A stretch of 64,000 nt of DNA from Nitrospinota bacterium (GCA_016217735.1 JACRGQ010000013.1:10428-74427); one strand, 5' to 3'. Counted from the first letter of the stretch, positions 35,299-56,369 are shown. Program-made: numbers and translations. The notes: generated by a model from the letters alone, not told the origin.

Positions 35299-35366
35299 TG
35301 TCATTCTGAGCCAACGGTGAAGAATCCCTTTCCGGAAAGAGATCCTTCGCTACGCTCAGGATGACA
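35299..35366. repeat. Palindromic intergenic repeat, family 1, copy A (TGTCATTCTGAGC…GAAGAATCCCTTTCCGGAAAGAGATCCTTC…GCTCAGGATGACA)
   Basis: About 68-nt nested inverted repeat between convergent genes; near-identical copies at 42436-42514 and 56302-56369 (inverted). Confidence 0.6.
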
Positions 35367-35419
35367 AAAAAAACGGCGCGGCTTTTTGGGCCGCGCCGGG
35401 TATGTGCGTGGAATGCGAC

Positions 35420-36277
35420 TTAGATTTCGTACGGGGGGCGCATGGCGCGCAGGGCCGCCACCCGCTTTTCCATCGGCGGATGCGTGCTGAAAAGGCTCAG
35501 CAGGCCGCCGCCCGTGAGCGGGCTGACGATGAACATGTGGGCCGTCGCCGGTTCCGCGTCCATCGGGATGACCTGTGCGCCGCGGCTGATCTTTTCCAGC
35601 GCCGAGGCGAGCGCCTCGGGGTTCCGCACCAGCGCCGCGCCGGTCCGGTCCGCGCCGTATTCGCGCGTGCGGCTGATGGCCATCTGCACCAGCATTGCCG
35701 CGATCGGGGCAAGGATCATCATCAGTATCATCACCGCCGGGTGCGAGCCGCCTTCGCGGTCATTGCCGCGTCCGCCGCCGAAGATCATCGCCCACTGCGC
35801 CATGTTCGCCAGCATGCTGATGGCGCCGGCGATGGTGGCCGCTATGGTGCCGATGAGAATGTCGCGGTTTTTAACGTGCGCGATTTCGTGCGCCAGCACG
35901 CCCGCCAACTCGTCCTTCGACAGCATCCGCATGATGCCGTCGGTGACCGCCACCGCCGCATGCTCCGGATTGCGTCCGGTGGCGAAGGCGTTGGGCTGCT
36001 CCGACGGAATGATATAAATCTTGGGCATCGGGATGCCGGCCGCCTGCGTGATCTGCCGTACCGTGGTGTGCAGTCCCGGCGCATCGGCCTCGGAAACCTC
36101 ACGCGCGTTGTACATCCTGAGAACGATCTTGTCGCTCCAGTAGTATGAAACGAAGTTCATTATAACGGCGAAGGCAAAGGCCATCACCATGCCGCTCTGC
36201 CCTCCCAAGGCGCTTCCCGCCGCCACAAGGATGACGGACATTGCCGCAAGAAGAAAGGTCGTCTTAAGAATGTTCAT
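35420..36277 (-). CDS. htpX: Zinc metalloprotease HtpX
   Basis: HEIAHV HExxH motif, N-terminal TM segments, typical [10 protein letters not shown] start with RBS GGAGG. Confidence 0.9.
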
Positions 36278-36483
36278 CGCTGTACTGGATCCTCCAATAT
36301 GGTTATTTATGGATTGATAAGACCTCCCGGAAAGGAAGTCAATGCTGACTGATACCCCACATGATTGAACCAATAATAACACATTTTAGTCAGATATTAA
36401 CCTGTGCGGCACGAAAATAAACCGAATATTAAGGGCGGGGTTGCCAGAAGCATTGGGGAATATGGTTCGGAGTTTGAGGGCTA

Positions 36484-36517
36484 TAAAAAAAGACCCGGAA
36501 CAGCGGACTGTTCCGGG
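36484..36517 (-). terminator. Rho-independent terminator for the cupin gene
   Basis: CCCGGAAC-N8-GTTCCGGG hairpin followed by a 7-nt U-tract on the minus strand. Confidence 0.5.
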
Positions 36518-36543
36518 CCGTGCGTATATGCGGGAAAAACCGA

Positions 36544-36891
36544 TTAGCGTTTTTCCATGCCAGCCGGCTGCTTGGTTACCTGCTGGGCGATCAGGTCGCC
36601 CTTGCCGTTGTCAATGAGGTCATGCCACACATTGGCGGGGGCGACCACAACGGAACCGGGGCCCACTTGGATGACTTCTTCCTTGCCATCGTCCAGCTTG
36701 AATGTGCCGGTGCCCGCAATCACGGTGAATATCTGGTCACCGGTGGGGTGTTTGTGATAGCCGATGCCCTGCTTGGCCTTGTAGTAGTACACATCAAGGG
36801 TCAGCACATCGGTCTTCACCAAGGTGACTTTGCTCACCGTCCCGTCAGTAAATACTTTGCTCTTATTGATATCGTTCTGTTGTATGGCCAT
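36544..36891 (-). CDS. Cupin-domain protein
   Basis: G(x)5HxH…P…H cupin motif region (GYHKHPTGDQIF…WHDLIDNG); 115 aa. Confidence 0.7.
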   Translation of the reverse strand: MAIQQNDINKSKVFTDGTVSKVTLVKTDVLTLDVYYYKAKQGIGYHKHPTGDQIFTVIAGTGTFKLDDGKEEVIQVGPGSVVVAPANVWHDLIDNGKGDLIAQQVTKQPAGMEKR

Positions 36892-37000
36892 AGTGTATCT
36901 CCTGTTGAAAAAACTGTTTACAACCCAATACGCAAATTAAACCACGGGAATATCGTATCCCGATAATGTAACAGGGTCAATTGACCCCGGTTGTTGTTTA

Positions 37001-37882
37001 TCAGCGGGCGCCGCCCGGACTTTGGGCGGGGGGCGTTTCGTTAACCTCCGGGCTGTTGCCGGAAAGTTCGGGTACCCGCATCACGCCCGCTTTTTCATGT
37101 TTTTTCTCGTAGAGCAGGATGAGGCTGATGCGCCGGTTCCGCTCGTCGCGCGGGTTGTATTTAATCAGCGGTTCGGTGTCGGCGTAGCCCACCACCCGCG
37201 CGATGCGGTAGGGGTCGATGCCGTTTTCCTCCAGCAGCTTGCGCGCGGACAGGGCGCGGTTGGCGGATATTTCCCAGTTGGTGACGCCGTTGACGTTATA
37301 CGGAGTGGCGTCGGTGTGCCCTTCCAGCGCCACGCGGTTGGTGGTCTCCTTGATGTTGTCCGAGATCATCTTCATCACTCTTTTGCATTTTTCGGTGGGG
37401 ACGACGCTGCCCGGCTCGAACATCCGGCTTCCCTCCTTGTCCACCAGCTGGATGCGGACGCCCCCTTCGAAGATGTCGATCATCACCTGGTCCTTGAGTT
37501 CGTCGAACTTCTCGGTGACCGCGCCGGTGATCTTGTCTTTCATCTGCTCGGCGGTCACTTCGGATGCGGCCCCCTTGGTAAGATCCATGTTTTGGGGCGT
37601 TTGCTGGTTGCCGCCGGGTTGCGCCACGATCCCTTTGGTTCCCTCGAAGAAGGATGAGCCGGATTCCTTGAAGACGGAGAACTGCTTGAAGTACTCCGCC
37701 ATAACGATCCGTTTTTCCGGCGAGACCATGGCAAGCAGCCAAAGCAGCAGGAAGAAGGCCATCATGGCGGTCACGAAGTCGGCGTACGCCACTTTCCACG
37801 ATCCGCCGTGGGCGCCTCCGTGCCCCTTCTTCACTTTTTTGATGATGATGGGCTGTTTGCCGTCTTTTTTCGGATCGGCCAT
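37001..37882 (-). CDS. motB: MotB-like stator protein with OmpA/peptidoglycan-binding domain
   Basis: N-terminal TM with conserved Asp context (YADFVTAMMAFFLLLW) and a C-terminal OmpA-like domain. Confidence 0.8.
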   Translation of the reverse strand: MADPKKDGKQPIIIKKVKKGHGGAHGGSWKVAYADFVTAMMAFFLLLWLLAMVSPEKRIVMAEYFKQFSVFKESGSSFFEGTKGIVAQPGGNQQTPQNMDLTKGAASEVTAEQMKDKITGAVTEKFDELKDQVMIDIFEGGVRIQLVDKEGSRMFEPGSVVPTEKCKRVMKMISDNIKETTNRVALEGHTDATPYNVNGVTNWEISANRALSARKLLEENGIDPYRIARVVGYADTEPLIKYNPRDERNRRISLILLYEKKHEKAGVMRVPELSGNSPEVNETPPAQSPGGAR

Positions 37883-37885
37883 TAA

Positions 37886-38743
37886 TTATTTCTTAACCTT
37901 TGAAATGGCGGTTTCCACTTCCGCGAAGGATGGACGCACCTGATGCGGGATGACACGGCGGCCGAATTCCACGGCCACCTGCGGCGCCTCGCCCCGGACG
38001 AACGCCACGAGGATCACTTTGAGCATCATCAGGTATTGGTGGTCTTCGGTGGCGAGCGCCTCGAGGTTTTTGGACATCGGCCCGACGTAGCCGTAGCAGA
38101 GCAGCACGCCGAGGAAGGTGCCGACCAGGGCCGCGCCAACGTGGTGTCCCAGCACGGAGGGCGGCTCGTCGATCTTGCCCATGGTGATAACGACGCCGAG
38201 CACCGCCGCCACGATACCGAGGCCGGGCAGCGCGTCCGCCACGTTGCCGATAACCTTCGACGGGGTGAGCGCCTCTTCGTGGTGGGCTTCCAGTTCGGCG
38301 TCCAGCAGCGCGTCCAGATCGTGGGCCGCGATGGAGGTGCTCATCACCGTGCGGAGCGTATCGGTGACGAAATCGAGAAAGCCGTGATTGGCGCTGAACT
38401 TCTTGTACTTTTTAAAGATGGGGCTGTTTTTCGGTTTTTCCACGTCTTCTTCGATGGAGATCAGCCCTTCGCGGCGTATCTTGAAAAATATCTCGCTCAT
38501 CAGGCTCAGCGCTTCCAGGTAATCGGCCTTTCCGTAGGTTTTGCCGCTGAGTATCCGCTTTATGTCGGCGAACACCAGCTTGATGATCTTGGGCGGAGCC
38601 TGGATGATGAAGCCGCCGAGGGCCGCGCCGCCGATGATGAGCAGTTCCGCCGGCTGCAAAAGAACCGAGAAGTTGCCGTGTTCGAGGGCATACCCCCCCA
38701 GCACACATCCGAGAACGACGATGGCGCCGATTACCGCAAACAT
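37886..38743 (-). CDS. motA: MotA-like proton-channel stator protein
   Basis: 285 aa, four-TM MotA/TolQ/ExbB family; immediately upstream of motB. Confidence 0.8.
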   Translation of the reverse strand: MFAVIGAIVVLGCVLGGYALEHGNFSVLLQPAELLIIGGAALGGFIIQAPPKIIKLVFADIKRILSGKTYGKADYLEALSLMSEIFFKIRREGLISIEEDVEKPKNSPIFKKYKKFSANHGFLDFVTDTLRTVMSTSIAAHDLDALLDAELEAHHEEALTPSKVIGNVADALPGLGIVAAVLGVVITMGKIDEPPSVLGHHVGAALVGTFLGVLLCYGYVGPMSKNLEALATEDHQYLMMLKVILVAFVRGEAPQVAVEFGRRVIPHQVRPSFAEVETAISKVKK

Positions 38744-39340
38744 CTATTCGACACTCCTTCGGTTTTCCCGGAGTTCCCGGAAGATTTCACGCTGGCGCAA
38801 AAATACATAGTGAATAAGTCTATCCCGGATTTCCTCGTCCATGGGGGAAAAGTTCACCCACAGCCGCCCCTGTTCCGCCTTTACCGCCTTGCCGTAAATG
38901 TAGAGCGCCACCGGCGGGGCAACCGGGAGCATCATCTTCATCTCCACCCTGTCGCCCGGCGCGGCCGGCGCGGCAAACGGAAGGCAGATGCCGCCGCCGC
39001 TCAATTCCACCGAAAGGTGTGGCATGTGGCAAAACTCCTCCCGTTCCTTTTCCAGCAGGCTGAGGATGGCGTCAAGTTTCGCGTTGAGCATCCGCAGCCA
39101 CGCCGAAAGTAATCTATCGTCATGTTCCGGCAAATCCTTGAACTCCGCCTGGAGCAGGTCGGTGGAAACGCGGGATTTAAGTTCCTCCGCGTCGGCCGGG
39201 AGCACCCGCGCCTCAATCGGAATGAACGCGTCCACCTTGGAGTAATCCCCGTGGACGGAACTTTCCCATTGCTCTTTTTTTTGTTCTTCCATATCGCCGA
39301 TGTTGATTACTTTACCATACGGCTGAACGGCTGCCACCAA
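38744..39340 (-). CDS. PilZ-domain protein co-transcribed with motAB (possible c-di-GMP brake); canonical RxxxR not evident
   Basis: ELSGGGICLPF…GDRVEMKMMLP…GRLWVNF matches the PilZ DxSxxG beta-barrel core. Confidence 0.55.
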   Translation of the reverse strand: MVAAVQPYGKVINIGDMEEQKKEQWESSVHGDYSKVDAFIPIEARVLPADAEELKSRVSTDLLQAEFKDLPEHDDRLLSAWLRMLNAKLDAILSLLEKEREEFCHMPHLSVELSGGGICLPFAAPAAPGDRVEMKMMLPVAPPVALYIYGKAVKAEQGRLWVNFSPMDEEIRDRLIHYVFLRQREIFRELRENRRSVE

Positions 39341-39466
39341 TCGTTTTACCCCGATGCACTCTAATGAAACGTTTCACTTTATCCGTTTGCGCCGCAAATA
39401 CCCCGGCGGCGCAAACGCATTTGTAAACAGTCAATTATTGGGCCTTGCGGCCCCTATAAGAGAATA

Positions 39467-40240
39467 TCAAACCAGACGGAGGAGTAGCAACCCTAAAAGA
39501 GCCGCCAGCCCGGCGGGAACGATCACCTCGCCCGTGGCGCTTCCGAGCAGCAGCAGGTGGTAGATGAAGAGAAAATCCTGCTTCAGCGACATTTTGCTGC
39601 TTCCCTCCGTCCGCTGGTTGAAGACGTAGGGTACCTCGATGCTTTTTGTAAATTTCCCCCGCACCAGCACTTCGAGGAAAATCTTGAAGCCGGTCGGCGA
39701 GAGTTTTTTCAGGTTTACCCGGTCCGCCTTGAAGAGGAAACAGCCAGTGGTGGTGTCGTGAATCCCCCAGAGCGTTTTGGGGAGCAGTATTTTGGCTATG
39801 ATGTTCGCCACGTTCGATATGACCACGCGGTACCACGCCCAGTCCTGGGTGCCGCCCCCCTCCACCTTGCGGCTGGCGATGGCCATGTCGGCGTTTTCCC
39901 GCACCGCCGCTTCGTACAGGCGGCGGATGATGTCGGGCGGATGCTGCAGGTCGGAATCGATGACGGCGAAATGCGCGCCGCCCGCCGCTTCCCAGCCGCG
40001 CACCACGGCGGTGGCAAGCCCCCGCTCGGTGGTGCGGCATATCACCTTGAGGCCGGGATAGCGTTCTTTGAGAGCTTCGGCGGTCTTGGCGGTGCCGTCC
40101 GGCGAGTTGTCGTCCACCACGATCATCTCCACGGTCACGCCGCTCCCGGCAAAGCTGCCGTGCACGCGGCGGAGCAGTTCGGCGATGTTCTTCGCCTCGT
40201 TGTAGGTGGGCATTACCAGTGAAATTGCGGGGGCCGTCAT
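39467..40240 (-). CDS. GT2 polyprenol-phosphate glycosyltransferase (dolichol-P-mannose synthase-like)
   Basis: SLVMPTYNEAKNI…VVDDNSPDGT…DSDLQHPP GT2 motifs with C-terminal TM helices; start at an internal ATG. Confidence 0.8.
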   Translation of the reverse strand: MTAPAISLVMPTYNEAKNIAELLRRVHGSFAGSGVTVEMIVVDDNSPDGTAKTAEALKERYPGLKVICRTTERGLATAVVRGWEAAGGAHFAVIDSDLQHPPDIIRRLYEAAVRENADMAIASRKVEGGGTQDWAWYRVVISNVANIIAKILLPKTLWGIHDTTTGCFLFKADRVNLKKLSPTGFKIFLEVLVRGKFTKSIEVPYVFNQRTEGSSKMSLKQDFLFIYHLLLLGSATGEVIVPAGLAALLGLLLLRLV

Positions 40241-40290
40241 GCGGGGAAGTCTACCAGAAACCGCGCGCCGCGCGAAACGCCATTCCGTTT

Positions 40291-40320
40291 TTAACCACGA
40301 ATAACACGAATAGCACGAAG
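40291..40320. promoter_or_regulatory. Three tandem 9-bp iterons (NNNCACGAA) upstream of the GT2 gene
   Basis: aaCCACGAATaaCACGAATagCACGAAGag; a similar array occurs at 57026-57060. Confidence 0.3.
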
Positions 40321-40393
40321 AGGGAAGAATTTCGCCGGATATTTGGGCAATATAGCGGTATGCGGTAGAATAATTCAGGCGAGGATATAGAAA

Positions 40394-40684
40394 ATGACCA
40401 TGGAAACATTGCTCAAAGAGAAGCGGCGGGAAATCCTGCGCATTGCCCGTGAGTATGGTGCGAGCAGAATCCGTATATTTGGTTCCGTCGCGCGGGGTGA
40501 AGACCGGCCCGATAGCGATGTCGATTTTCTTGTCGAAATGGAAGATGGGCGCAGCCTTCTCGACATCGGCGGCATGCAAATGGACCTTCAAGACCTGTTG
40601 GGAAGGAAGGTGGATGTTGTTACCGAAAAAGGGATGCGCCCTCGGATAAAAGACAGGGTATCAAAAGAAGCCGTTTCCCTATGA
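40394..40684 (+). CDS. MntA-type nucleotidyltransferase antitoxin
   Basis: IFGSVARGEDRPDSDVDFLVE is the NTase GS/DxD motif; 4-nt overlap with the downstream HEPN gene. Confidence 0.8.
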   Translation: MTMETLLKEKRREILRIAREYGASRIRIFGSVARGEDRPDSDVDFLVEMEDGRSLLDIGGMQMDLQDLLGRKVDVVTEKGMRPRIKDRVSKEAVSL

Positions 40685-41013
40685 GGGATGACCGCCAGCG
40701 CATTCTGGATATTCTGGAAGCGATAGAGAAGATCGAAAAGCATACCTGTGGCGGCAAAACGGCATTTGAAGAAGACGAACTGATCCAAACATGGGTTGTC
40801 TACCACCTTCAGATCATCGGCGAAGCGGCCAGCAAGATTTCCGACGCCGGCAAAGAAAAATATTCCGCGGTTCCCTGGCGCAAAATAATCGGCATGAGGA
40901 ATACCCTTGTTCACGGATATTTTGGGGTGGATGCCGATGTCGTGTGGGCGGCTGTGAAGAATGACTTGCCAGCCCTCAAGGAATCGCTTGGGAATCCCCC
41001 ATTACCGCTATAG
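40681..41013 (+). CDS. HepT-type HEPN toxin (DUF86)
   Basis: RNTLVHGY is the HEPN Rx4-6H motif; 110 aa. Confidence 0.8.
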   Translation: MRDDRQRILDILEAIEKIEKHTCGGKTAFEEDELIQTWVVYHLQIIGEAASKISDAGKEKYSAVPWRKIIGMRNTLVHGYFGVDADVVWAAVKNDLPALKESLGNPPLPL

Positions 41014-41592
41014 TTTCCTGATATATGAAGAAGTATCGGCCTTGCCCGTGCTTGTAACCACACCATTAAAGTTGTGAAGTTGTGAATTTGCTTTTTCTGA
41101 ATAGGTGGTTAACTCTTTTTTGAGATCTTCATAAAGCCGTTTTGCTTCCTCATTGTTATACGTTGCACACACCTTGTCACAGAATTCAATAAGGTGTTTA
41201 TTAAGTACTGGGGTTATTTTAGAATATTTCTTGAGCCAGTCAATATTTCCCTCAAAGCGCGATTCCGTGAGGTGGACAAGCCTTTGACTAGAATTTGTGT
41301 AAAAATCACCAAATCGTGTTTCTATTTTCCAGTTTAAATCAAACTTGCCTAACCAAACGTCATTTTCAAAATGCCTCTTGTCCATGGTGAAGAATTCAAC
41401 TAAGCATCGGCAATGGGCTATGTAGCTGTCCAATGTGGCCTGCCACTCAACTCTTTCCCTATCACTTCCACTTCTCTTTTTCCCAAAGGAACTGTCTGTA
41501 AGAAGCAACAAGGTCTCGTTCATCATCCACGCTTCAAATTGGATGTGTTTGTGGCGATCTATAAGGTAGTTTCCATCTTTATTGCTATTCAT
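41008..41592 (-). CDS. AT-rich orphan hypothetical protein (194 aa), likely horizontally acquired
   Basis: Markedly lower GC than its flanks; convergent with the HepT/MntA pair; no recognised motif. Confidence 0.5.
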   Translation of the reverse strand: MNSNKDGNYLIDRHKHIQFEAWMMNETLLLLTDSSFGKKRSGSDRERVEWQATLDSYIAHCRCLVEFFTMDKRHFENDVWLGKFDLNWKIETRFGDFYTNSSQRLVHLTESRFEGNIDWLKKYSKITPVLNKHLIEFCDKVCATYNNEEAKRLYEDLKKELTTYSEKANSQLHNFNGVVTSTGKADTSSYIRKL

Positions 41593-41687
41593 GGCAAAAC
41601 ATTATACATGAAAGGCTATGTGGCTGTTGCTGTCGTGTCGGGAGGGTGGTGTTTGGGGGTAGGGGCAACGTTTTACTTGTTGGGTTA

Positions 41688-42413
41688 TCAGCCTTTCTGG
41701 AGGTCGCTGGGGAGTTGCAAGGTGATGCCGTTGACGGCGGAGGAGCGCGGGCCGGCGAGGAAGAGGATCGCGTCGGCCACCTGCTCCGGTTTCAGCTTCG
41801 GGCCGTCGAAGCCGGGGAAGGCGTCGCGCAGCATGCCGGTGTCCACCGCGCCGGGGGCCACCGCGTTCACGCGGATGCCGTATTGTTTTCCTTCTTCCGC
41901 CAAGGCTTCGGTGATGCCGATCACGGCAAACTTCGACGCGCAGTAGACCGAGAACCCCGGAAACTTCTTCGCCCCCTGCACACCCGAAAGGGACGATACG
42001 CTGACGATGCTGCCTCCCTTGGCCTTCATCAGCCCAAACGCCTCGCGGCAGCAGAGGAAGACAGCGGCGGCGTTCACCTGCATCACGCGGTGGTACTCCG
42101 CCATCGAAACATCCTCGACGTACGCGCCGGAAAAAACCCCGGCGTTGTTCACCAAAATATCGAGCGTTCCATACATGGTTTGGATATGCGCGAAAAGGGC
42201 GATGACCGCTTTTTCGTCCGCCATGTCGCATTCAACCGTTTCGGCTTCGCCGCCGGCATCGGCAATCAGCCGCGCGGTTTCGTTCAACTCGTTCTCCGAG
42301 CGCGCGCAGACGATCACCCGCGCCCCCTCTTTGGCCAGCAACAGCGCCACGGCCCGGCCTATGCCGCGCCCCGCGCCGGTCACCAGCGCCGTTTTTCCGT
42401 CAAGCGGTCCCAT
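41688..42413 (-). CDS. SDR-family oxidoreductase (FabG-like)
   Basis: TGAGRGIGRA Rossmann motif and YCASKFA catalytic YxxxK. Confidence 0.85.
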   Translation of the reverse strand: MGPLDGKTALVTGAGRGIGRAVALLLAKEGARVIVCARSENELNETARLIADAGGEAETVECDMADEKAVIALFAHIQTMYGTLDILVNNAGVFSGAYVEDVSMAEYHRVMQVNAAAVFLCCREAFGLMKAKGGSIVSVSSLSGVQGAKKFPGFSVYCASKFAVIGITEALAEEGKQYGIRVNAVAPGAVDTGMLRDAFPGFDGPKLKPEQVADAILFLAGPRSSAVNGITLQLPSDLQKG

Positions 42414-42435
42414 GCCGCTTATTTTACCCCCTTCT

Positions 42436-42514
42436 TGTCATTCTGAGCATTGCGAAGAATCCCTTTCCGGGAAAAGATTAAGAAAGAGATACTTCCCCTA
42501 CGGCTCAGGATGAC
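42436..42514. repeat. Palindromic intergenic repeat, family 1, copy B (with central insertion)
   Basis: TGTCATTCTGAGCATTGCGAAGAATCCCTTTCCGG…GGCTCAGGATGAC. Confidence 0.6.
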
Positions 42515-42519
42515 CGGGA

Positions 42520-43599: not shown

Positions 43600-43613
43600 G
43601 GCGCCGCCGCCGG

Positions 43614-44177: not shown

Positions 44178-44401
44178 AACACCTGCTCGACGGATGTGAT
44201 TCCCGCGACCTTTTCCACGAGCGCCCGCTCAATGCCGAGCTTCAGCGTGTAGGTGGAAGAAGGGCACGCGCCGCACGCGCCGACCAAGCGGACGGAAACG
44301 ACGCCTTCCTGTACATCCACCAGTTCCACATCGCCGCCATCGGCATTCAGCGCCGGGCGTATCGATTCCAAGACTTTTTCAACCTGCTCTTTCACTTCCA
44401 T
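44174..44401 (-). CDS. NifU C-terminal domain (Nfu-type Fe-S scaffold) protein
   Basis: [11 protein letters not shown] CxxC motif; 75 aa. Confidence 0.8.
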
Positions 44402-44615
44402 GATTTTTCCTTTCCCGCATAAATGCGGACTGTTGTTACTCTTATCATTTCATTTTATCCACTGTATCCCGATTATTCAAGTAGAGCCGGGAAATCGGGG
44501 AAATGTTCAATTGATTGTATTTGCAGGGCTAAATTTTAGGCTTCGGCGTTATTTCTTTGTAATACAATGGCTTGCTGATAAGCGCAATTTGCAGAATTGG
44601 CATCGTGTGGAACGG

Positions 44616-45905: not shown

Positions 45906-45936
45906 TATACCCCGCGCGGCCCCGTTTTCGGCGTTT

Positions 45937-48283: not shown

Positions 48284-48357
48284 CCGCGGGATGGATCGAC
48301 GGTGCCGGTTGGATGTCATGGAATGGAAATGACAATGTTTCCGGTTTTCATTTCCTT

Positions 48358-48378
48358 CCCCTCCTTCGCAAGGAGGGG
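48358..48378 (+). other. Perfect 9-bp hairpin CCCCTCCTT-cgc-AAGGAGGGG (no U-tract) in the thiC 3' region
   Basis: Direct reading; near-copy of the terminator hairpin 30 nt downstream. Confidence 0.5.
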
Positions 48379-48409
48379 ATACAGGGGAGGTTCTGCAACC
48401 CCTCCTGCA

Positions 48410-48441
48410 CCTCCCCTTGGAAAGGGGAGGAATTATTTTTT
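48410..48441 (+). terminator. Rho-independent terminator of thiC
   Basis: CCTCCCCTT-gga-AAGGGGAGG hairpin followed by AATTATTTTTT. Confidence 0.55.
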
Positions 48442-48471
48442 CCCGAACTCCATGTTTAACGTCCGTCCGCG

Positions 48472-49191
48472 ATGAGAATCTGGCCCGTCGCGGGAACCCT
48501 CGGCGTTGGCGCGCAATTCGCCATCACCGGCGCGGATGCAAAGCATATTCACGACGTTTTGCGTTACCGTCCCGGCGACCGGCTGAAGGTTTGCGATGAC
48601 GATTGCAAAAGTTTTTGGGCCGAGATCACGGCGATAACGCGCGGCGAAGTATCGCTCATCGCCCGCGAGGAACTGCCAGAGGAAAAAAAACGGCTTCCCG
48701 AAGTGGTTCTGGCAATGTCGCTGAACAAGGCGGCCGTGTTGGAGATAGCGGTGCAAAAAGCGGTGGAGCTAGGCTGTACCTGGTTTCTGCCGGTGGTCAC
48801 CCGCTATTCGATGGGGGTGGATATTTCTCCCGCCAAGCTGGAACGGCTCCGCAAAATAGCGCACGAGGCGGGCAAACAGTGCGGGCGGAGCTCATTGATG
48901 CCGGTGGCGGAGCCGGTGCAACTGGACGAGATGCCGGAGGCCGATCTCCGCATCGTCCTGTGGGAAGAGGAAAAAAGCCGCCCGCTGAAAGAGGCGTTGG
49001 CCGCCGCGAAAAATCCAAAAAGCGTGCTGGTGCTTATCGGCCCCCAGTCGGGCTTCGCCGAAGACGAGGTGGCGTTCCTCAAGGAACTCGGCTTTATTTC
49101 GGCGGGACTGGGACCGCTGATACTGCGCGCCGAGACGGCCGCCATCGCCGCCGCCGCCGTTGTGGCCTACCACTTCGGCAAACTTGATTAA
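48472..49191 (+). CDS. rsmE: 16S rRNA (uracil1498-N3)-methyltransferase RsmE
   Basis: 239 aa, PUA-like N-terminus and SPOUT C-terminus pattern. Confidence 0.8.
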   Translation: MRIWPVAGTLGVGAQFAITGADAKHIHDVLRYRPGDRLKVCDDDCKSFWAEITAITRGEVSLIAREELPEEKKRLPEVVLAMSLNKAAVLEIAVQKAVELGCTWFLPVVTRYSMGVDISPAKLERLRKIAHEAGKQCGRSSLMPVAEPVQLDEMPEADLRIVLWEEEKSRPLKEALAAAKNPKSVLVLIGPQSGFAEDEVAFLKELGFISAGLGPLILRAETAAIAAAAVVAYHFGKLD

Positions 49192-49197
49192 CCTCAG

Positions 49198-50400
49198 ATG
49201 AAAATTCCCCATTCCGAAGCCTCCAGAAAATCGCGCGGCATCACGTCGTTCATGGCGATGGACGTGGCGGAGCACGCGAAAGAACTCCAACGCTCCGGGC
49301 GGAGCATTATCCGCTTCGAGCTGGGCGAGCCGGACTTCGAGACTCCCAAAGTGGCGGCGGACGCGGGCATTCGCGCCATACAGGAGGGGAAGACCAAGTA
49401 CACCCCGTCGCTCGGCACGATGGAATTGCGCGGGGAGATTTGCCGCTTCCACAAAGAACAGTATGGCGTGTCGGTGGAAACGGAGCGGGTGGTGGTGGCG
49501 AACGGTTCGTCCGCCGCGCTCTTTCTCACCTTCGCCGCGCTGCTCAACAAAGGGGACGAGGTGATAATGGGCGACCCGCATTACGCCTGCTACCCAAACT
49601 ATGTATCGTTCCTCGACGGCAGGCCGGTCTTTGTCCCGCTGTTCGAGAAGGAAGGATTCAAGCTGACCGCCGCGAAAATAAAAAAGGCGCTGACGAAAAA
49701 AACAAAGGCGGCGCTCATCAATTCGCCGGGCAACCCGACCGGCGTGGTGCTGCCGCCGGTGGAACTGCGGCGGATAGCCCAGCTCGGCGTCACCATTGTG
49801 TCGGACGAGGTGTATCACGGCCTGTCGTATGTGGGGCGCGACCGCTCGATACTGGAATTTACCGATAACGCGTTCGTCATCGGCGGTTTTTCCAAACGGT
49901 GGGCCATGACCGGCTGGCGCATCGGTTACGTCATCGCCCCGCCGGAATACATCCGCGCGATCCAGAAGGTGCAGCAGAATTTTCAGATTTCGCCCGGCGC
50001 GATATCGCAGGAGGCGGCGCTGGCGGCGTTGCGTTACGGCTTGAAGGATGCCGAGAGGATGCGGAAGGAGTACGCCAAACGCCGCACGGTGATGGTGGAG
50101 GGGCTGCGCGGCATCGGCTTTCCGGTGAAGGCCGAGCCGCAGGGGGCGTTTTATGTGCTTACCTCCTGCGCGTTTTTGGATGGCGATTCAAAGCGGCTGG
50201 CGTTCAGGATTTTGGACGAGGCGGGGGTGGCGGTCACTCCCGGCGCCGATTTCGGCCGCCTGGGGGAGGGGCACCTGCGCTTCAGCTACGCCACCGGCGT
50301 GAAAGACATCCGCGAGGGGCTGCGGCGGCTGGGCGCGTTCATCAAAAAAGAGCGGGCATCCGGCAAAAGCGGCCTTGCCTTATCGCGCGGGAAAGGGTAA
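49198..50400 (+). CDS. PLP-dependent aminotransferase, class I (aspartate aminotransferase-like)
   Basis: GEPDF motif and SFSKRWAMTGWRIGY PLP-lysine region. Confidence 0.85.
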   Translation: MKIPHSEASRKSRGITSFMAMDVAEHAKELQRSGRSIIRFELGEPDFETPKVAADAGIRAIQEGKTKYTPSLGTMELRGEICRFHKEQYGVSVETERVVVANGSSAALFLTFAALLNKGDEVIMGDPHYACYPNYVSFLDGRPVFVPLFEKEGFKLTAAKIKKALTKKTKAALINSPGNPTGVVLPPVELRRIAQLGVTIVSDEVYHGLSYVGRDRSILEFTDNAFVIGGFSKRWAMTGWRIGYVIAPPEYIRAIQKVQQNFQISPGAISQEAALAALRYGLKDAERMRKEYAKRRTVMVEGLRGIGFPVKAEPQGAFYVLTSCAFLDGDSKRLAFRILDEAGVAVTPGADFGRLGEGHLRFSYATGVKDIREGLRRLGAFIKKERASGKSGLALSRGKG

Positions 50401-50410
50401 ATACAATCCC

Positions 50411-52129
50411 ATGAATTACACAAGAGAAGAACTGTTAAAACCGTTTACACGAAAATTCCTCCCGCCCGAATTCGCCGTCACCGGCACGGACGCCATCAAG
50501 CCGTGGGTGGATCACCTGCTGGAGCGCCCGCTGCATTCCGCCGGCGAACTGCAGGATTGGCTGGAGGATTACTCCGAACTGGAGGCGGCGCTGGGGGAGG
50601 ACTCCAATCTCCGCTACGTCGCCATGACCTGCGACACGAAGGACAAGGCCAAGACGGACGCGTATCTCCAGTTCGTGCGCGAGATACAGCCGAAGCTGAC
50701 CGAATGGAGCGACGCGCTCAATAAAAAGTTCTACGGTTCGCCGCACCGCGTAAAACTTGATACTTCCCGCTACGGACGGCTGACGCTCATGATCGGCGTC
50801 AGCATCGAGCTGTTCATCGAAAAGAACATTCCGCTCGACGTGAAGCTTGCGGAGATGTCGCAGCAGTACCAGTCCATCACCGGCTCGTGGAGCGTGGAGT
50901 TCGACGGCGAAAAGCGGACGATGCCGCAGATGAGCCGCTACCAGCTCAAAACCGACCGCGCGGTGCGTGAAAGCGCCTGGCGTGCCACCGCCGCCCGGCG
51001 GCTGGAGGACGCCGAAAAACTGGACGTCCTTTTCGACGAGATGGTGAAAACGCGCCACGAATACGCCCTGAATCTGGGCCTGGCCGATTACCGCGCCTAC
51101 TCATTCAAGGCGAAGCTGCGCGATTACACCCCGGACGATTGCCTCCGCTTCCACGACGCAATAGAAAAATCGGCCGTGCCGGTGGCGCGCCGCATCATGG
51201 AAAAACGCAAGGCCGAGATGAAGCTCGATTCGCCGCGGCCCTGGGATACCGCCGTCGATCCGCTGGGAAGGCCGCCGCTGGAGCCGTTCAAGGAGGTGTC
51301 GCACCTGCAACGGGGCGTCGGCCAAATGTTCGACAAAATCGACGGACGCCTGGGGGCGATGTTCAACGCCATCGGCGAGACGATGGACCTCGACAGCCGC
51401 GACGGGAAGGCTCCCGGTGGCTACCAGACGACGTTCGAGGAGCGGCGCATACCGTTCATCTTCACCAACGCGGCGGGCGTTCACGGTGATGTGACCACCC
51501 TGCTGCACGAGGGGGGGCACGCCTTCCACACGTTGCAAAGCCGCCGCGATCCGCTGATCTGGTACCGCCATGCCGCGATGGAGTTTTCCGAAGTCGCCAG
51601 CATGACGCAGGAGCTTTTGGGCAACGGCCATGTGACGGTGTTCTACGATGATCCCGCCGCCGCCAAACGCGCCATGTACGAGCAGCTTGAGCGGACGGCG
51701 GATATTTTTCCGTGGGTCGCCACGGTGGACGCCTTCCAGCACTGGATTTATACGAACCCCGCGCACACCCGCGAGGAACGCGCCGCGAAATGGCTGGAGA
51801 TTTCCAAACGGTTCGAGACGGGGGTGGACTGGAGCGGCCTTGATCCCAACATCCGCAAGTTCGCGTGGCACCGGCAGCTTCACATCTTTGAGGTGCCGTT
51901 CTACTACATTGAATATGCCATCGCGCAGCTTGGCGCGTTGCAGATTTACCGCGAGTACAAAAAGGACCCGCGAAAAGCGGTGGACGCCTACCTGAAGGCG
52001 CTGGCGCTCGGCGGCGGCAAGGGGCCGAAGGAACTGTTCGCGGCGGCGGGGGTGAAGTTCGATTTCTCGCTCGACATGCTGGGGCGGCTCATGGCGATGG
52101 TGGAAGAGGAAATGGCCGCCCTCAAATAG
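50411..52129 (+). CDS. pepF: Oligoendopeptidase F-like M3 family metallopeptidase
   Basis: HEGGHAFH HExxH motif; about 570 aa. Confidence 0.85.
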   Translation: MNYTREELLKPFTRKFLPPEFAVTGTDAIKPWVDHLLERPLHSAGELQDWLEDYSELEAALGEDSNLRYVAMTCDTKDKAKTDAYLQFVREIQPKLTEWSDALNKKFYGSPHRVKLDTSRYGRLTLMIGVSIELFIEKNIPLDVKLAEMSQQYQSITGSWSVEFDGEKRTMPQMSRYQLKTDRAVRESAWRATAARRLEDAEKLDVLFDEMVKTRHEYALNLGLADYRAYSFKAKLRDYTPDDCLRFHDAIEKSAVPVARRIMEKRKAEMKLDSPRPWDTAVDPLGRPPLEPFKEVSHLQRGVGQMFDKIDGRLGAMFNAIGETMDLDSRDGKAPGGYQTTFEERRIPFIFTNAAGVHGDVTTLLHEGGHAFHTLQSRRDPLIWYRHAAMEFSEVASMTQELLGNGHVTVFYDDPAAAKRAMYEQLERTADIFPWVATVDAFQHWIYTNPAHTREERAAKWLEISKRFETGVDWSGLDPNIRKFAWHRQLHIFEVPFYYIEYAIAQLGALQIYREYKKDPRKAVDAYLKALALGGGKGPKELFAAAGVKFDFSLDMLGRLMAMVEEEMAALK

Positions 52130-52197
52130 TTTTTTTGAGGTGAACTCGGCCCTCTGTGGTTGCTTGCTCTCGGTAGGGTCGACATTCTTGTCGGCCA

Positions 52198-52225
52198 TTG
52201 CCCCCGGAGGGGGCAAGCATTTTTA
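52198..52225 (+). terminator. Rho-independent terminator of pepF
   Basis: TTGCCCCC-gga-GGGGGCAA hairpin followed by GCATTTTTA. Confidence 0.5.
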
Positions 52226-52300
52226 AAAAGTCGGCCTTAACGGGCCGATGACACGCAGGAACGCGTGTCCTACCGGGAAAAAAGCCGAATCGATCTTTGG

Positions 52301-52543
52301 CTACCTTGTATGTTTATGCGGGGGCGGGGCGTGATGCCCCTTCTCCGCCGTTTCTTCGATAAGGCCGAGTATGCGCGGGGTGCAGCGCTTGCCGCCGCAG
52401 CTGCCGCTTCCCGCGCCGGTCGCTTTACGCAGCCCCGCCAGCGTGTGGATACCGGCGGCGAGGTGTTTCATGAAGACTTTTTTCTTGATTCCCTTGCACA
52501 GGCAGACCGGCTTCAGCCCCTCGATGATTTCCTTTTCGTCCAT
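52301..52543 (-). CDS. BFD-like [2Fe-2S]-binding domain protein
   Basis: CLCKGI…GSCGGKRC cysteine pattern typical of BFD-like domains. Confidence 0.55.
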   Translation of the reverse strand: MDEKEIIEGLKPVCLCKGIKKKVFMKHLAAGIHTLAGLRKATGAGSGSCGGKRCTPRILGLIEETAEKGHHAPPPHKHTR

Positions 52544-52588
52544 GCGGCGAGTATAGCAGACGGGGAACCGCACCGATGCGCCATTGGG

Positions 52589-53407
52589 CTATTTCCCCGC
52601 GCGGAGGTTCGTTCCCACGTTGGGCGGCACGATCATCAATGTGCAGTTGGCCGACTTGGAGCAATTTTCCACCGCGCCGGAAAACGCTTTTACCCCTTCA
52701 AGCTGCACAAAGAGATCGGGTGAAAGCCCCATCGCCATCCGGTAGGCGTTGTCCGCCTCCGCGCGCTTGATCTCGGCGGCCTTCCGTATCTCCTGCGCCA
52801 GCGCCCGTTGCCGCTCGGTGTTTTGAAGCTGCTGCTGGGTCGCCGTGGCGGTGATCGCGGTCATCACTTCGTCGGTCGGGATAATGCGTCCCACCGTCAC
52901 CGACATCACATCCACCGGGATTTGGCTGGCGGTGACGATGGCGATAATTTCCTTTTTCGCCTCCAGCGCCATCGCCTCGTTCGCTTCGGTGGAAGAGACC
53001 AGCTGGTTCATGTCGTATTTCTTGCAGAGATTGCGGACGACCGTGCGGAACGGCTCCTTCACGTTCATGCTGTACCAGTTGTCGCCGAACTTTTCCACCA
53101 GTTGCGGCGCGTTGCGGATCTGGGTCTTGATGTAGACGTTGAAGTGAACCGGCACGTTATCCTTTGACATCATATCGCTGAACAGTTCGTCGTACTGCAC
53201 CGGCTTGACATCAACCAGCGTGGCGTCGGTGCTCCACCATGCCCAGGTGAGGCCGGTTCCCACCGGTTCCGGGCGTACGCCGCCATGGCCGAAGAAATAG
53301 GGGCGGTCCGTCAGCACCGCGTTTTCGCCCGGGCCGATGGAGACCGCATGACAGGCGGCGAAAAATGGCAATAAAAACAGAACAAGGATTACTTTATGCG
53401 ATTTCAT
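52589..53407 (-). CDS. SPFH/band-7 (prohibitin-like) domain lipoprotein
   Basis: Signal/lipobox LLPFFAAC; SPFH core with coiled-coil AE-rich segment. Confidence 0.75.
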   Translation of the reverse strand: MKSHKVILVLFLLPFFAACHAVSIGPGENAVLTDRPYFFGHGGVRPEPVGTGLTWAWWSTDATLVDVKPVQYDELFSDMMSKDNVPVHFNVYIKTQIRNAPQLVEKFGDNWYSMNVKEPFRTVVRNLCKKYDMNQLVSSTEANEAMALEAKKEIIAIVTASQIPVDVMSVTVGRIIPTDEVMTAITATATQQQLQNTERQRALAQEIRKAAEIKRAEADNAYRMAMGLSPDLFVQLEGVKAFSGAVENCSKSANCTLMIVPPNVGTNLRAGK

Positions 53408-53495
53408 TTTTAAAACCTCTTGGATGTTTAGCGGCGCTTCATGATGAAAATACTATGCTTCGAGATAGAACGTGTCAAGTTCCCGTTTTTGTCCT

Positions 53496-55289
53496 TCATT
53501 CCCGCTTGACCGATTGCTCAGCTGTTCCCCCATCCGCGGCGGGCGCGCCGCCGTGGCGGGTGAACTGCATTTCGTAAACCCGCTTGTAAGCCCCCCCCGC
53601 GTTCAGCAGTTCGTCGTGCGTTCCCTGTTCCACGATGCTTCCCTTGTCCAGCACGATGATGGTGCGGGCGTTCTTGATGGTGGAGAGGCGGTGGGCGATG
53701 ACGAAGGTGGTGCGGTTCTGTATCAGGTTGTTAAGCGCCTTCTGCACTTCGATTTCCGATTTGGTGTCCAGCGCGGAGGTGGCTTCGTCCAAAATGAGGA
53801 TGGCCGGGTTTTTCAGCAGGGCGCGGGCGATGGATATCCGCTGGCGCTGGCCGCCGGAAAGGCGCGCGCCGCGCTCGCCGATGACGGTATCGTACCCCAT
53901 CGGCATTTCCATGATGAAATCGTGCGCGTAGGCGGCGCGGGCGGCGGCCTCTATCCGTTCACGCGGAATATCGCTGTGGCCGTAGGCGATGTTGTTGCGC
54001 ACCGTGTCGTTAAAAAGGAACACCTCCTGCGTGACGATGCCGATCTGTCCGCGCAGCGAGGCCAGCGTGGCGTGGCGGATGTCGGCCCCGTCGAACAGAA
54101 TCCGCCCTTCCACCGGGTCGTAAAAGCGGGGGATGAGGTCGACCAGCGTCGATTTTCCCGCGCCGCTGGTGCCGACGATGGCGAGGACGGCCCCGGCGGG
54201 AACGGCGAGTTCCACCCGGCGCAGCACCGGTTCGTTGTGGTAGGCGAATGAAACGTTTTCGAACCGTACTTCGCGCGCCACCGGGGCTATCGGCTTCGCG
54301 TCCGGCGCATCGGCGATCTCGGAGGGCGTATCGAGGATTTCAAACACGCGGGAGGCGGCCCCCATCGCCTGCTGGATTTTGTTGTACACCCGGCTCAGCT
54401 TGTTTATGGGCGCGAAGACCATGAACATCGCGGTGAGGAAGGAGAAGAAGTTCCCCACGGTGCTGTGCCCGTCGATCACCTGCATGCCGCCGTACCAGAT
54501 GATGGCCCCCACGCCGAACGCGCCGAGAAACTCCAGCAGCGGCGAGGAAAGCTCGTTTATCTTTATCGTCTTGAGCATGGTGCGGAAAAAGCCCTCGTTG
54601 TGCTCCTTGAACCGCGTCACCTCGTACCGTTCCATGCCGAAGGCCTTCACCACCCGCACGCCGGAAAACGCCTCGTGCATCAGCGAGGTGAGGTCGGCCA
54701 TCCGCTCCTGCGTGTTGCGGCTGATGGCGCGGAGTTTCCGCCCCAGCTTGCCGATCAGCAGCGCGGCGAAGGGAAAGGTGACCAGCACGAACAGCGAAAG
54801 CTTCGGGTCGCGGTAGACCAGCACCCCCAGCAGCGCGGCGGCGGTGAAACTTTCGCGGAAGAGATCGTACACCACGATGGAGATGGTGTCCTGTATCACG
54901 TTCACGTCGTTCACGATGCGCGAGACCAGCTTGCCGGTGGTGTGCCGGTGGTAGAAGGAGAGGGAAAGCCCCTGCATGTGGCCGTACAGATCGTTGCGTA
55001 TGTCGCGCACCGTCATCTGGCCGATCTTCTGCATCAGCATGCTGGCGTAATACCGCCCGATGCCGCGCAGCAGGTAGATGCCGACGATGGCGGCCGGCAG
55101 CAGCATCAGCAGGTTGCGGTCCTTCTTGATGAAGATGTCGTCCATCAGCGGCTGGATGAGGAACGCCGCGCCCCCCGCGGTGGAAGAGATCACCGCCATG
55201 CCGATGGCCGCCAGCACGAACGATCCCATGTACGGGCGGAGGTAGCGCAACAGCCGCCGGTAGTCGCGCATCGTGTTTTCAGCCGTCAT
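53496..55289 (-). CDS. msbA: ABC transporter fused permease/ATPase, MsbA-like lipid exporter
   Basis: Six-TM N-terminal domain plus GTSGAGKST, LSGGQRQRISIARA, LILDEATSALD; next to a heptosyltransferase-like gene. Confidence 0.85.
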   Translation of the reverse strand: MTAENTMRDYRRLLRYLRPYMGSFVLAAIGMAVISSTAGGAAFLIQPLMDDIFIKKDRNLLMLLPAAIVGIYLLRGIGRYYASMLMQKIGQMTVRDIRNDLYGHMQGLSLSFYHRHTTGKLVSRIVNDVNVIQDTISIVVYDLFRESFTAAALLGVLVYRDPKLSLFVLVTFPFAALLIGKLGRKLRAISRNTQERMADLTSLMHEAFSGVRVVKAFGMERYEVTRFKEHNEGFFRTMLKTIKINELSSPLLEFLGAFGVGAIIWYGGMQVIDGHSTVGNFFSFLTAMFMVFAPINKLSRVYNKIQQAMGAASRVFEILDTPSEIADAPDAKPIAPVAREVRFENVSFAYHNEPVLRRVELAVPAGAVLAIVGTSGAGKSTLVDLIPRFYDPVEGRILFDGADIRHATLASLRGQIGIVTQEVFLFNDTVRNNIAYGHSDIPRERIEAAARAAYAHDFIMEMPMGYDTVIGERGARLSGGQRQRISIARALLKNPAILILDEATSALDTKSEIEVQKALNNLIQNRTTFVIAHRLSTIKNARTIIVLDKGSIVEQGTHDELLNAGGAYKRVYEMQFTRHGGAPAADGGTAEQSVKRE

Positions 55290-56302
55290 AATCTCTCTTT
55301 CACGGCGGCGGCCGCTTCGTCGGCGGTCAGCCGGTCCATGCAATCCCAATACGGGCATTGTTCTTTAACGCACACGTCGCACATTGGCACGTCGGGGCGC
55401 AGGGCGGCGTCGCGCGTTCCTATCGGGCCCCACCGCCGCGGCAGGCAAACCCGGATAGGGCAGTATATCCCAACGGCGGGAGTGCCGACAGCCCCGGCGA
55501 TGTGCAACGGCCCGGTGCTGGGGGCGACGAAAACGTCGAGCCTGTGTATGAAAGCGGCCAGTTCCTTGAGGTGCGCCCCCGCAAACCGTTTTGGCGTTGT
55601 GGCGCAGGCCGCCGCCACCGCGTCGACGATTCCGGCATCCGCCGCGCCTCCCATAAGGATGACGTTGTTTCCCTCGGCGCCCAGGATGTCGATCAGCCGG
55701 GCGTACTGCTCCGGCTTCCAGTTGCGCGCGCTTCCCCCCATGCCGGGGAATACGCCGATGTTTTTCCGTGACGGATCGAGCAACGCCGCCGCCGCGCCGA
55801 TGGCGTCCGGCGTAACGGGAAGCATGCTTCTCCGCAGCGGCGGAACGCCGAGCGGCGCGAGGAGATCGAGATTGTAATCCGCTTCGTGCCTCTCCCCCCG
55901 GCTGCGGCGCTGGGGGATGGCGGTGTTGTAAAAGATGCGCGCCAGCTTGCTGGCGGGGCCGATGCGCACCGGCACCCCCGCGCGCCACACGGCGAGCGAT
56001 ACCCAAAAATCGGAGTACAGGTGCAGCGCCGCGTCGAATTTTTTGAGGCGCAGGATGCCAGCCAGCGGCGCGGTGTTATTCCACGACGGCTTCTCGTCGG
56101 TATCCAGCGTGAGCAGTTCGTCGATGGCGGGGTGCCCCTCCAATAGCGGCGCGACCGTCGGCCGCACCAGCATGGCGATTTTCCAGCCCGGTTTTTCCAT
56201 GCGCAGCGACACCAGCACCGGGGTGGATAGGATCACGTCGCCGATGCGGTCGGGACGGATGACAAGGATGCGCGCGTTATCGGGCAGAACTATCGGCCCC
56301 AT
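55286..56302 (-). CDS. Glycosyltransferase family 9 (ADP-heptose:LPS heptosyltransferase-like) with C-terminal Cys cluster
   Basis: ILVIRPDRIGDVILSTP N-terminus typical of GT9; C-terminal CDVCVKEQCPYWDC. The annotated N-terminal extension is a translation of repeat copy C. Confidence 0.8.
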   Translation of the reverse strand: MGPIVLPDNARILVIRPDRIGDVILSTPVLVSLRMEKPGWKIAMLVRPTVAPLLEGHPAIDELLTLDTDEKPSWNNTAPLAGILRLKKFDAALHLYSDFWVSLAVWRAGVPVRIGPASKLARIFYNTAIPQRRSRGERHEADYNLDLLAPLGVPPLRRSMLPVTPDAIGAAAALLDPSRKNIGVFPGMGGSARNWKPEQYARLIDILGAEGNNVILMGGAADAGIVDAVAAACATTPKRFAGAHLKELAAFIHRLDVFVAPSTGPLHIAGAVGTPAVGIYCPIRVCLPRRWGPIGTRDAALRPDVPMCDVCVKEQCPYWDCMDRLTADEAAAAVKERL

Positions 56303-56369
56303 GTCATCCTGAGCCGCAGGCGAAGGATCTCTTTCCGGAACGGGATTCTTCGCTACGCTCAGAATGACA
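56302..56369. repeat. Palindromic intergenic repeat, family 1, copy C (inverted relative to copy A), abutting the GT9 start codon
   Basis: Reverse complement TGTCATTCTGAGCGTAGCGAAGAATCCCGTTCCGGAAAGAGATCCTTCGCCTGCGGCTCAGGATGACA. Confidence 0.6.

Follow-up and report, generated by a model that had tools for sequence, protein, structure and literature searches.

Intergenic doublets of tagged REP hairpins are gained and lost between closely related Nitrospinota genomes

Background

Repetitive extragenic palindromic (REP) sequences that carry an unpaired CGTC or TGTC tag (also CCTC) at one end of a stem-loop form a superfamily, which was described with its families CGTC-1 to -4 by Di Nocera, De Gregorio and Rocco (2013, BMC Genomics 14:522; PMC3733652). 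Here, we analyse three copies (A, B and C) of a palindromic intergenic element, which lie in a 64-kb stretch of a Nitrospinota metagenome-assembled genome (MAG), in the following named the window, and compare them with this superfamily and with related systems. According to those parts of the 2013 article that are used here and wherever it is cited below, the stem comprises 8-9 bp with complementary A-T residues at positions one and two, the loop consists of 4-5 nt, and an unpaired 3-nt tail has the consensus CCA. The repeats occur in tens to thousands of copies per genome and were known from five host phyla as of 2013. Their dimers are mostly head-to-head (HH, 'termini outside'), with conserved spacers and frequent heterodimers, tail-to-tail (TT) and head-to-tail (HT) pairs being rare; no transposase is described there as associated with or dedicated to CGTC-type REPs. 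Members include dRS3 of Neisseria as well as RPE-4 and RPE-6 of Rickettsia (PMC3733652). The repeat dRS3, ATTCCC-N8-GGGAAT, is present in about 700 copies and is the target of phage Nf1 (PMC3898611).

A second group is formed by the REP doublets forming hairpins (REPINs) and the bacterial interspersed mosaic elements (BIMEs), which go with RAYT (TnpA-REP) proteins (Bertels and Rainey 2011; Ton-Hoang et al. 2012; review PMC6006769). Bacterial miniature inverted-repeat transposable elements (MITEs) such as Correia/NEMIS, RUP, ERIC and Nezha are likewise small, palindromic, intergenic, co-transcribed and strain-variable; they possess the terminal inverted repeats of a parent insertion sequence (IS) and target-site duplications.

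Results and discussion

Three doublets composed of six tagged arms

The window copies are HH heterodimers of the CGTC/TGTC-tagged REP superfamily, as judged by its published description (PMC3733652), and such doublets constitute non-coding intergenic DNA that is gained and lost between closely related Nitrospinota genomes. To the explanation as a whole, i.e. tagged REP doublets which are gained and lost and whose spread is presumably brought about in trans, we assign a probability of about 0.72. The copies, with their arms as matched by a covariance model, are the following (loci fetched for comparison are denoted by L and a number):

35299-35366: copy A, HH dimer; arms at 35298-35329 (plus strand, T-type, 26 nt) and 35338-35367 (minus strand, C-type, 24 nt), with the centre CCCTTTCCGGAAAGAG between them
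42436-42514: copy B, HH dimer; arms at 42435-42464 (plus strand, T-type, 24 nt) and 42485-42516 (minus strand, degenerate C-type, 26 nt, tag GGTC)
42471-42481: central insertion or partial duplication GAAAAGATTAA of copy B, about 11 nt, absent from the orthologous copy in L156
56302-56369: copy C, HH dimer; arms at 56301-56332 (plus strand, C-type, 26 nt) and 56341-56370 (minus strand, T-type, 24 nt)

An initial annotation had listed the three copies as intergenic, with an outer and an inner inverted repeat, copy B having a central insertion, and all of this holds. The outer repeat TGTCATYCTGAGC / GCTCAGRATGACA and the inner repeats were verified in each copy by repeat pairing, and gene calls based on open reading frames (ORFs) and Pfam place all copies between genes. 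Each copy contains the 12-mer GTCATYCTGAGC twice, and these six occurrences are the only ones in the 64 kb; the covariance model of the arm also gave exactly six arms (E between 1.6e-10 and 0.11), and no further arm was detected in the window. In contrast, the 'inverse orientation' ascribed to copy C is correct in part: relative to copy A, the order of the arm types (T/C) is reversed, whereas that of the arm lengths (26/24 nt) is the same.

In each copy, two inverted arms of 24-26 nt surround a TTTCCGGAAA centre with their tags pointing outward, and the centre C(C/T)C-TTTCCGGAAA-G(A/G)G is kept among copies. Among the adjacent arms of all fetched loci, 19 pairs were HH (tags outside) and 2 were TT (tags inside); the 15 HT pairs stem in part from one nested array. 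Heterodimers of a T-type and a C-type arm accounted for 13 of 17 clean HH dimers, and arms occurred singly and in tandem, too.

The real unit is not the whole palindrome, but the 24-26-nt arm, which forms a hairpin of its own by pairing of the outer-left with the inner-left half. The arm is laid out as YGTC, ATYCT, GA, GC(C), GNA or TTCG, (G)GC, GA, AGRAT, CYC; these parts represent an unpaired 5' tag, five Watson-Crick pairs, a tandem G·A/A·G step, a GC mini-stem of 2-3 bp, a triloop and a short tail. Its nine stem positions (ATYCTGAGC / GCGAAGRAT) comprise seven Watson-Crick and two G·A/A·G pairs, and the loop measures 3 nt (GNA), or 5 nt with the closing pair included.

Two collections of arms were evaluated for covariation. 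IMG/VR was scanned with GTCATYCTGAGC-N4-8-GAAGRATC, a pattern which leaves the Y and R positions free; among the matches listed, the Y/R partners were T-A in 86 cases, C-G in 72 and other combinations in 2. The second set was gathered with a sequence-only profile carrying no structural information. Its 152 distinct 30-mers contain a compensatory pair in the inner mini-stem (G-C 134, A-T 11), which is flanked by an invariant G..A and a near-invariant A..G. When the structure .....(((((..((...))..))))).... was imposed on 150 distinct arms, 98.6% of the cells were paired and 73 cells were double changes, compared with 24.4 in shuffles; none of 500 shuffles reached 73, and in a control the sliding of the 3' partners collapsed the pairing signal. 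All 150 arms contain GTC, mostly preceded by T or C, and all 150 begin their stem with A-T and T-A. In the window, five of the six arms carry the tag TGTC, and the right arm of copy B carries GGTC. Pairing is also kept in the variants ATTCC/GGAAT, ACCCT/AGGGT, ATGCT/AGCAT and GTCCT/AGGAC, and one longer arm variant possesses two tandem G·A steps. Inspection of the CUGA...GA motif ruled out a hammerhead or a k-turn, since the required NGA and the bulge are absent.

The initial annotation had proposed a long double-stemmed hairpin. The copies are indeed predicted to fold in this manner on both strands, both as RNA (-30 to -38 kcal/mol; z-scores between -5.1 and -6.9 for copies A and C, and between -3.2 and -3.5 for copy B) and as DNA (-17 to -19 kcal/mol, z about -4); the conserved, covarying pairing, however, lies within each arm. 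As the two partner arms are unlike, a G·T or A·C mismatch is found in every stem of the long hairpin, along with an asymmetric 5/7-nt internal loop; what looks like a 'nested palindrome' thus results from the pairing of two inverted hairpin units, and each copy is in effect a BIME/REPIN-like doublet. Covariation in the aligned arms supports the arm fold over the inter-arm fold, both folds being possible; in a doublet that is single-stranded throughout, the inter-arm hairpin is by far the more stable one. For single arms, nearest-neighbour calculations gave -1.9 and -4.5 kcal/mol as DNA and -4.6 and -10.3 kcal/mol as RNA, with z-scores of about -1 to -1.9. Mini-hairpins of the d(GCGAAGC) type and sheared G·A pairs are more stable than nearest-neighbour models credit.

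Comparison with described repeats

With the CGTC/TGTC-tagged REPs (PMC3733652), the window copies share the unpaired (C/T)GTC tag, the stem start A-T, T-A, about nine stem positions and a short 3-nt tail. Likewise, both are mostly arranged as HH dimers, including heterodimers, with conserved spacers, and both are intergenic, sometimes reaching over gene ends, with no flanking transposase. The initial term 'REP-like' was thus well chosen with respect to tag, stem start, dimers and spacers. Three features distinguish the window arm from the description in the 2013 article: the tandem G·A/A·G at two stem positions, the GNA triloop (or TTCG) on a GC mini-stem instead of the stated 4-5-nt loop, and the tail CYC instead of CCA. 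The more specific comparison with Neisseria dRS3 / NIME and Rickettsia RPE-4 / RPE-6 gives a similar picture: the ATTC...GAAT stem frame after the GTC tag and the pairing of arms around short spacers are common to all, and the copy number is probably high here as in the Neisseria and Rickettsia genomes, whereas stem interior and loop of the window arm differ. Moreover, dRS3 arrays are large clusters and integration targets of phage Nf1, and nothing comparable was seen here; the Rickettsia RPEs often lie in frame within genes, unlike the window copies.

The resemblance to REPINs and BIMEs concerns the doublet of two inverted REP hairpins, which is able to fold as one long hairpin, the conserved 5' tetranucleotide at the hairpin foot, the differing types of the partners (as in Y and Z REPs) and the high similarity of copies within a family. 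In contrast, the tag is YGTC here, while that of the REPIN/RAYT system is a GTAG 5' of the hairpin, and no RAYT flanked by YGTC arms (a REPtron) was encountered in the window or in the loci searched. A literature search with the literal DNA motif matched only unrelated primers, and pseudo-peptides from the mistranslated repeat matched nothing.

Presence and absence among relatives

Orthologous loci were obtained by means of GT9 and GT4 homologues. Each of the three sites differs between relatives, the DNA identity of the flanking genes being 79-88%. Three relatives (loci L152-L155) lack the element at site C and have 7 nt between an ORF of 186 aa and the GT9 gene; their GT9 is 85-89% identical to that of the window in protein and 86-88% in DNA. 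Only in the window is site C filled, the 104 nt found there corresponding to the 68-nt doublet and an additional segment:

56370-56406 (minus strand): extra 37 nt beside copy C, absent from the empty sites

Where it adjoins the element, this segment is similar to sequence flanking several other copies (L133, L122). At the empty site, the sequence is TAG-GGCGGGGATGAC-TGAACCG with the ATG in GGATGAC, and the filled site ends with ...GCTCAGGATGACA-TGGGGCCG; the heptamer GGATGAC, with which the arm ends, is therefore already present at the empty target. A doublet occupies site B in the window and in GCA_040961205.1 (L156/L157), with the identical right junction ...AATGACA|AGAAGGGGGTAAAATAA, and the site is empty in nzgw266 (L158, 44-nt gap) and in WY2.bin26 (L159/L160, 14-nt gap). 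At site A, the relatives L156 and L158 have a different palindromic repeat instead of the doublet, the adjoining terminator being kept. The covariance model found three doublets (six arms) in the window, as opposed to the L156 doublet only in 93 kb of syntenic relatives.

On contig L147 of MAG nzgw265, doublets interrupt other doublets at the CCG|G centre, an arrangement that recurs two or three times in tandem:

L147, 3000-3481: tandem nested array with a period of 156-196 nt, running off the contig end

Copies at non-orthologous sites of different MAGs are 93-97% identical (97% for copy C and L131), a value above the 85-88% DNA identity of flanking genes. This difference suggests sequence constraint or recent spread.

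These comparisons bear directly on the second term of the initial annotation, 'MITE-like', which would make the doublet a deletion derivative of a DDE transposon with the TGTCAT... arms as terminal inverted repeats. Small size, inverted termini of the form TG...CA, intergenic position and variable presence are as expected for such a derivative. However, no target-site duplication was found at any junction that could be compared, i.e. the filled and empty sites B and C and the nested insertions in L147, and in about 1.3 Mb of loci no transposase, full-length element or parent IS lies between distant inverted arms; the ORFs located there are phage structural or housekeeping genes. In addition, the arms are autonomous units which also exist singly and in tandem, and each is an internally covarying hairpin, which terminal repeats would not need. 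The MITE interpretation is largely refuted and must be regarded as highly improbable.

The initial annotation had also offered a regulatory RNA element. A cis-acting RNA that is maintained for the benefit of the flanking genes, be it a 3' stabiliser, terminator, processing site, translational regulator or small-RNA precursor, would fit the strong predicted folds, the clustering of solo arms 7-20 nt past ORF ends according to crude gene calls, and the weak sigma-70 consensus TTGTCA-16-AAGAAT in the left arm of copy A. Nevertheless, the element is missing at orthologous genes of close relatives, and by the same crude gene calls the solo arms are oriented 32 times with and 36 times against their genes, i.e. 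without bias; for these two reasons a dedicated regulatory RNA is very unlikely. Nor does a U-tract follow the hairpin, and the pairing exceptions in the arm stems, with G·U as frequent as A·C, bear no RNA-strand signature. Rfam gave no match in the whole window at gathering thresholds, and for copy C, searched with E up to 10, only chance-level hits.

Distribution of the arm

The arm motif is clearly not specific to this lineage, in contrast to what had initially been supposed: it was found in at least 120 IMG/VR contigs classified as viral and in MAGs of about 10 phyla, a breadth which is an upper estimate because MAG binning and IMG/VR classification can err. A stricter pattern (arm plus CCGG centre) occurs in 31 stretches of a set of species-representative genomes. 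Most of these belong to the Nitrospinales groundwater MAGs nzgw265, nzgw266 and nzgw267, with 11 loci in nzgw267 and 6 in nzgw266; the others come from MAGs labelled Candidatus Uhrbacteria, Candidatus Peregrinibacteria, Minisyncoccota (all three Patescibacteria or candidate phyla radiation, CPR), Verrucomicrobiota, Gammaproteobacteria/Thiotrichales, Nitrospirales, Caenarcanales, Chloroflexota and Clostridia. The window itself is outside those 31 stretches; an 832-nt segment of it matches one nzgw267 contig with 91% identity. A collection of cultured plasmids contained one partial match (a Calothrix plasmid), and a collection of cultured phages contained no arm match.

While the superfamily has been known since 2013, its hosts are extended here to Nitrospinota, CPR and other uncultured lineages and to viral-classified contigs; Nitrospinota, CPR, Chloroflexota, Verrucomicrobiota, Clostridia and the viral-classified contigs are all beyond the five phyla given in the 2013 article (PMC3733652).

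The doublets at 1694-1770 of L124 (a Candidatus Peregrinibacteria MAG) and at 6426-6502 of L150 (Nitrospinales nzgw266) have an unusual central insertion in common, GGAAAAAGAAGGGNNAGAGA. Their likeness across phyla would be due either to horizontal transfer or to a mis-binned short contig.

Proposed mobilisation of the doublets

How the doublets might spread can be proposed by analogy. A trans-acting enzyme probably recognises the folded, single-stranded arm together with its 5' tag, and would copy or move the doublet without generating a target-site duplication. A precedent for such an activity are the HUH/Y1 enzymes (RAYT, IS200-type), which act on GTAG REPs (PMC6006769). The inserted element would then be co-transcribed with its neighbours, and local effects would be by-products.

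Several observations weigh against the explanation as a whole. No homologue of Y1/RAYT, IS200 or GIY-YIG enzymes was found in the window or beside the arms in 150 loci, and the RAYT detected in a related MAG is accompanied by REPs of the GTAG type and not by YGTC arms. Presence and absence could also arise from recombination or deletion instead of transposition, and the GGATGAC at the empty site C hints at copying driven by microhomology rather than clean transposition. Furthermore, the calculated energies of single arms are unremarkable and the inter-arm hairpin is far more stable, so that in vivo either fold may prevail. Finally, the taxonomic breadth derives partly from MAG bins and IMG/VR calls, which are possibly contaminated.

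The search for Y1 enzymes was performed by tblastn with IS608 TnpA and the RAYT of E. coli and yielded a single RAYT:

L134, 1634-2266 (minus strand): RAYT-like Y1 transposase gene (GYDYS...HVHGI...YYEHIIRN) in the Nitrospinales MAG nzgw266

This gene is flanked by GTAGGGGCGGGTTT-AAACCCGCCCCTAC REP doublets (1030-1060, 1905-1985, 2430-2510), one of which lies in frame inside the gene. Its clade goes with REPs of the GTAGGGGCGGG type (GTAG): in 80 metagenomic loci of this clade, GTAG k-mers were present in 23-28 loci, compared with one YGTC arm in 314 kb. A possible link to small GIY-YIG nuclease genes was pursued by regular-expression search and tblastn and was dismissed, as none was found near the arms. 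Clustering of the ORFs beside the arms of the 150 loci gave only families of phage structural proteins and no recurrent non-phage family. The uniformly negative outcome agrees with the conclusion of the 2013 article that CGTC-type REPs have no dedicated transposase (PMC3733652).

For the same reason, recombination or template switching stays a live rival. In this case the doublets would spread or persist by gene conversion, by microhomology-based template switching or by the action of a site-specific or phage recombinase for which the arms serve as sites, as dRS3 of Neisseria does for the Nf1 phage enzyme. Besides the absence of a transposase associated with the arms, this is suggested by the target at site C, which matched the arm terminus beforehand, by the 37 nt of flank which arrived with copy C and are partly shared with other copies, by the frequency of arms in viral-classified contigs, and by dRS3, a member of the same superfamily and phage integration target of Nf1 (PMC3898611; PMC3733652). 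On the other hand, microhomology explains neither the nested insertion in the centre of another doublet nor the insertion into unrelated sequences at sites A and B, and no recombinase gene was found near the copies. We consider recombination unlikely, albeit less so than a regulatory RNA, and prefer the explanation by tagged REP doublets that are spread in trans.

Gene context and possible local effects

Copy A begins 9 nt past the stop codon of a rubrerythrin gene (plus strand); it is followed by a terminator-like hairpin and the stop of an M48 peptidase gene (minus strand), and hence is situated between convergent genes, as initially annotated. The hairpin lies outside the repeat and is kept in relatives:

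35374-35398: bidirectional hairpin resembling an intrinsic terminator, CGGCGCGGC...GCCGCGCCG, with an A-run and a T-run at its sides, adjoining copy A

Copy B, correctly placed downstream of the GT4 gene, is located 5 nt past the GT4 stop and 22 nt ahead of the ATG of an SDR gene. These are minus-strand genes, as are the neighbours of copy C on either side, namely the 186-aa ORF and the GT9 heptosyltransferase gene, whose start copy C abuts:

56300-56302 (minus strand): ATG of the GT9 heptosyltransferase gene, its A being the terminal base of copy C

The longest GT9 ORF has 362 aa and reads through copy C. Its N-terminal extension had been suspected to be spurious, and it is artefactual: the NCBI protein that is 100% identical to the window GT9 ('glycosyltransferase family 9 protein [Nitrospinae bacterium]') has 338 aa, which makes the ATG 56302-56300 the accepted start. 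The empty target held the final 7 nt of the arm, and GT9 now uses a new ATG that begins with the last A of the arm. Copy C separates two formerly adjoining genes by 104 nt, and their 7-nt junction was lost. The only Shine-Dalgarno-like sequence of GT9, AGGA, lies in the arm stem; the fold predictions make it plausible that a stem of about -38 kcal/mol hides both this AGGA and the first base of the start codon. Local effects are equally plausible for the stable hairpins predicted 5-9 nt past the rubrerythrin and GT4 stops.

Other repeats and side features

One further REP of the same superfamily, but of a different family, is present in the window:

52230-52252 (minus strand): solo TGTC-tagged REP of a sibling type, TGTCATCGGCCCGTTAAGGCCGAC, intergenic

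It represents one copy of the TGTCATCGGCCC-GCAA-GGGCCGAC type. The related MAG sequence L134 holds a unit of this type, too, as well as a canonical TGTC-ATCCCGCA-CTTGA-TGCGGGAT-CCAG unit. Further small hairpins were noticed beside the solo REP (52150-52300), in an intergenic region of about 460 nt.

A second repeat family, TTTAACCACGAA-N3-CACGAA-N3-CACGAA with a 9-nt period, is found at 40290-40320 (plus strand), 57026-57055 (plus strand) and 57119-57146 (minus strand), with 7 matches compared with 0.39 expected. At 57.0-57.15 kb, two copies pointing towards each other flank an AT-rich stretch of about 60 nt upstream of the 186-aa ORF, and similar TTCGTG repeats adjoin TGTC arms in the viral locus L015. 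These repeats could be a regulator-binding array or another dispersed repeat.

Members of a third, palindromic family, GCGCCAACGTACCCATTAAAATGGGTACCCACC with relatives such as TGGGTGGGTACGCGTTTTACCGTGTACATCCACCCA, occur at 2650-2682 and 21682-21714 of the window and in L129 and L144; this family also fills the intergenic site of copy A in L156 (about 18590-18625) and L158. A doublet version of about 180 nt exists in L132 (365-545) and L134 (99-278). At its centre is a conserved module of about 105 nt, which contains a number of small hairpins (CCGCGGAATTATTTTTCAATCCGCGG..., TCCCCTTCAAGGGGA) and may be another nested element. Between the SDR gene and a GT2 gene, at about 40394-41013 (plus strand), there is a putative toxin-antitoxin pair of the HepT/MNT type, which was assigned via synteny with L156 and L158 (Pfam HepT-like and NTP_transf_2).

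Conclusions

For annotation, the doublets matter as a source of false N-terminal extensions and spurious small ORFs, and they can rebuild start regions, as copy C did for a heptosyltransferase gene in a lipopolysaccharide/glycosyltransferase cluster. The clean pairs of filled and empty sites and the nested insertions are material for finding the enzyme or mechanism that spreads the superfamily. Apart from annotation and the search for a mobiliser, the doublets, whose activity in this Nitrospinota lineage is recent, are an ordinary class of selfish intergenic DNA. A more far-reaching idea is that the arm may be one nearly invariant single-strand hairpin module (YGTC tag, stem starting with A-T, tandem sheared G·A, GNA triloop), which genomes of about ten phyla have in common with their phages and which a widespread enzyme propagates, and not lineage-specific RAYTs; we regard this as speculative and rather doubtful. 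If it were true, the long-missing mobiliser of CGTC-type REPs could be sought in the recently active Nitrospinota lineage with its filled and empty sites and nested insertions.

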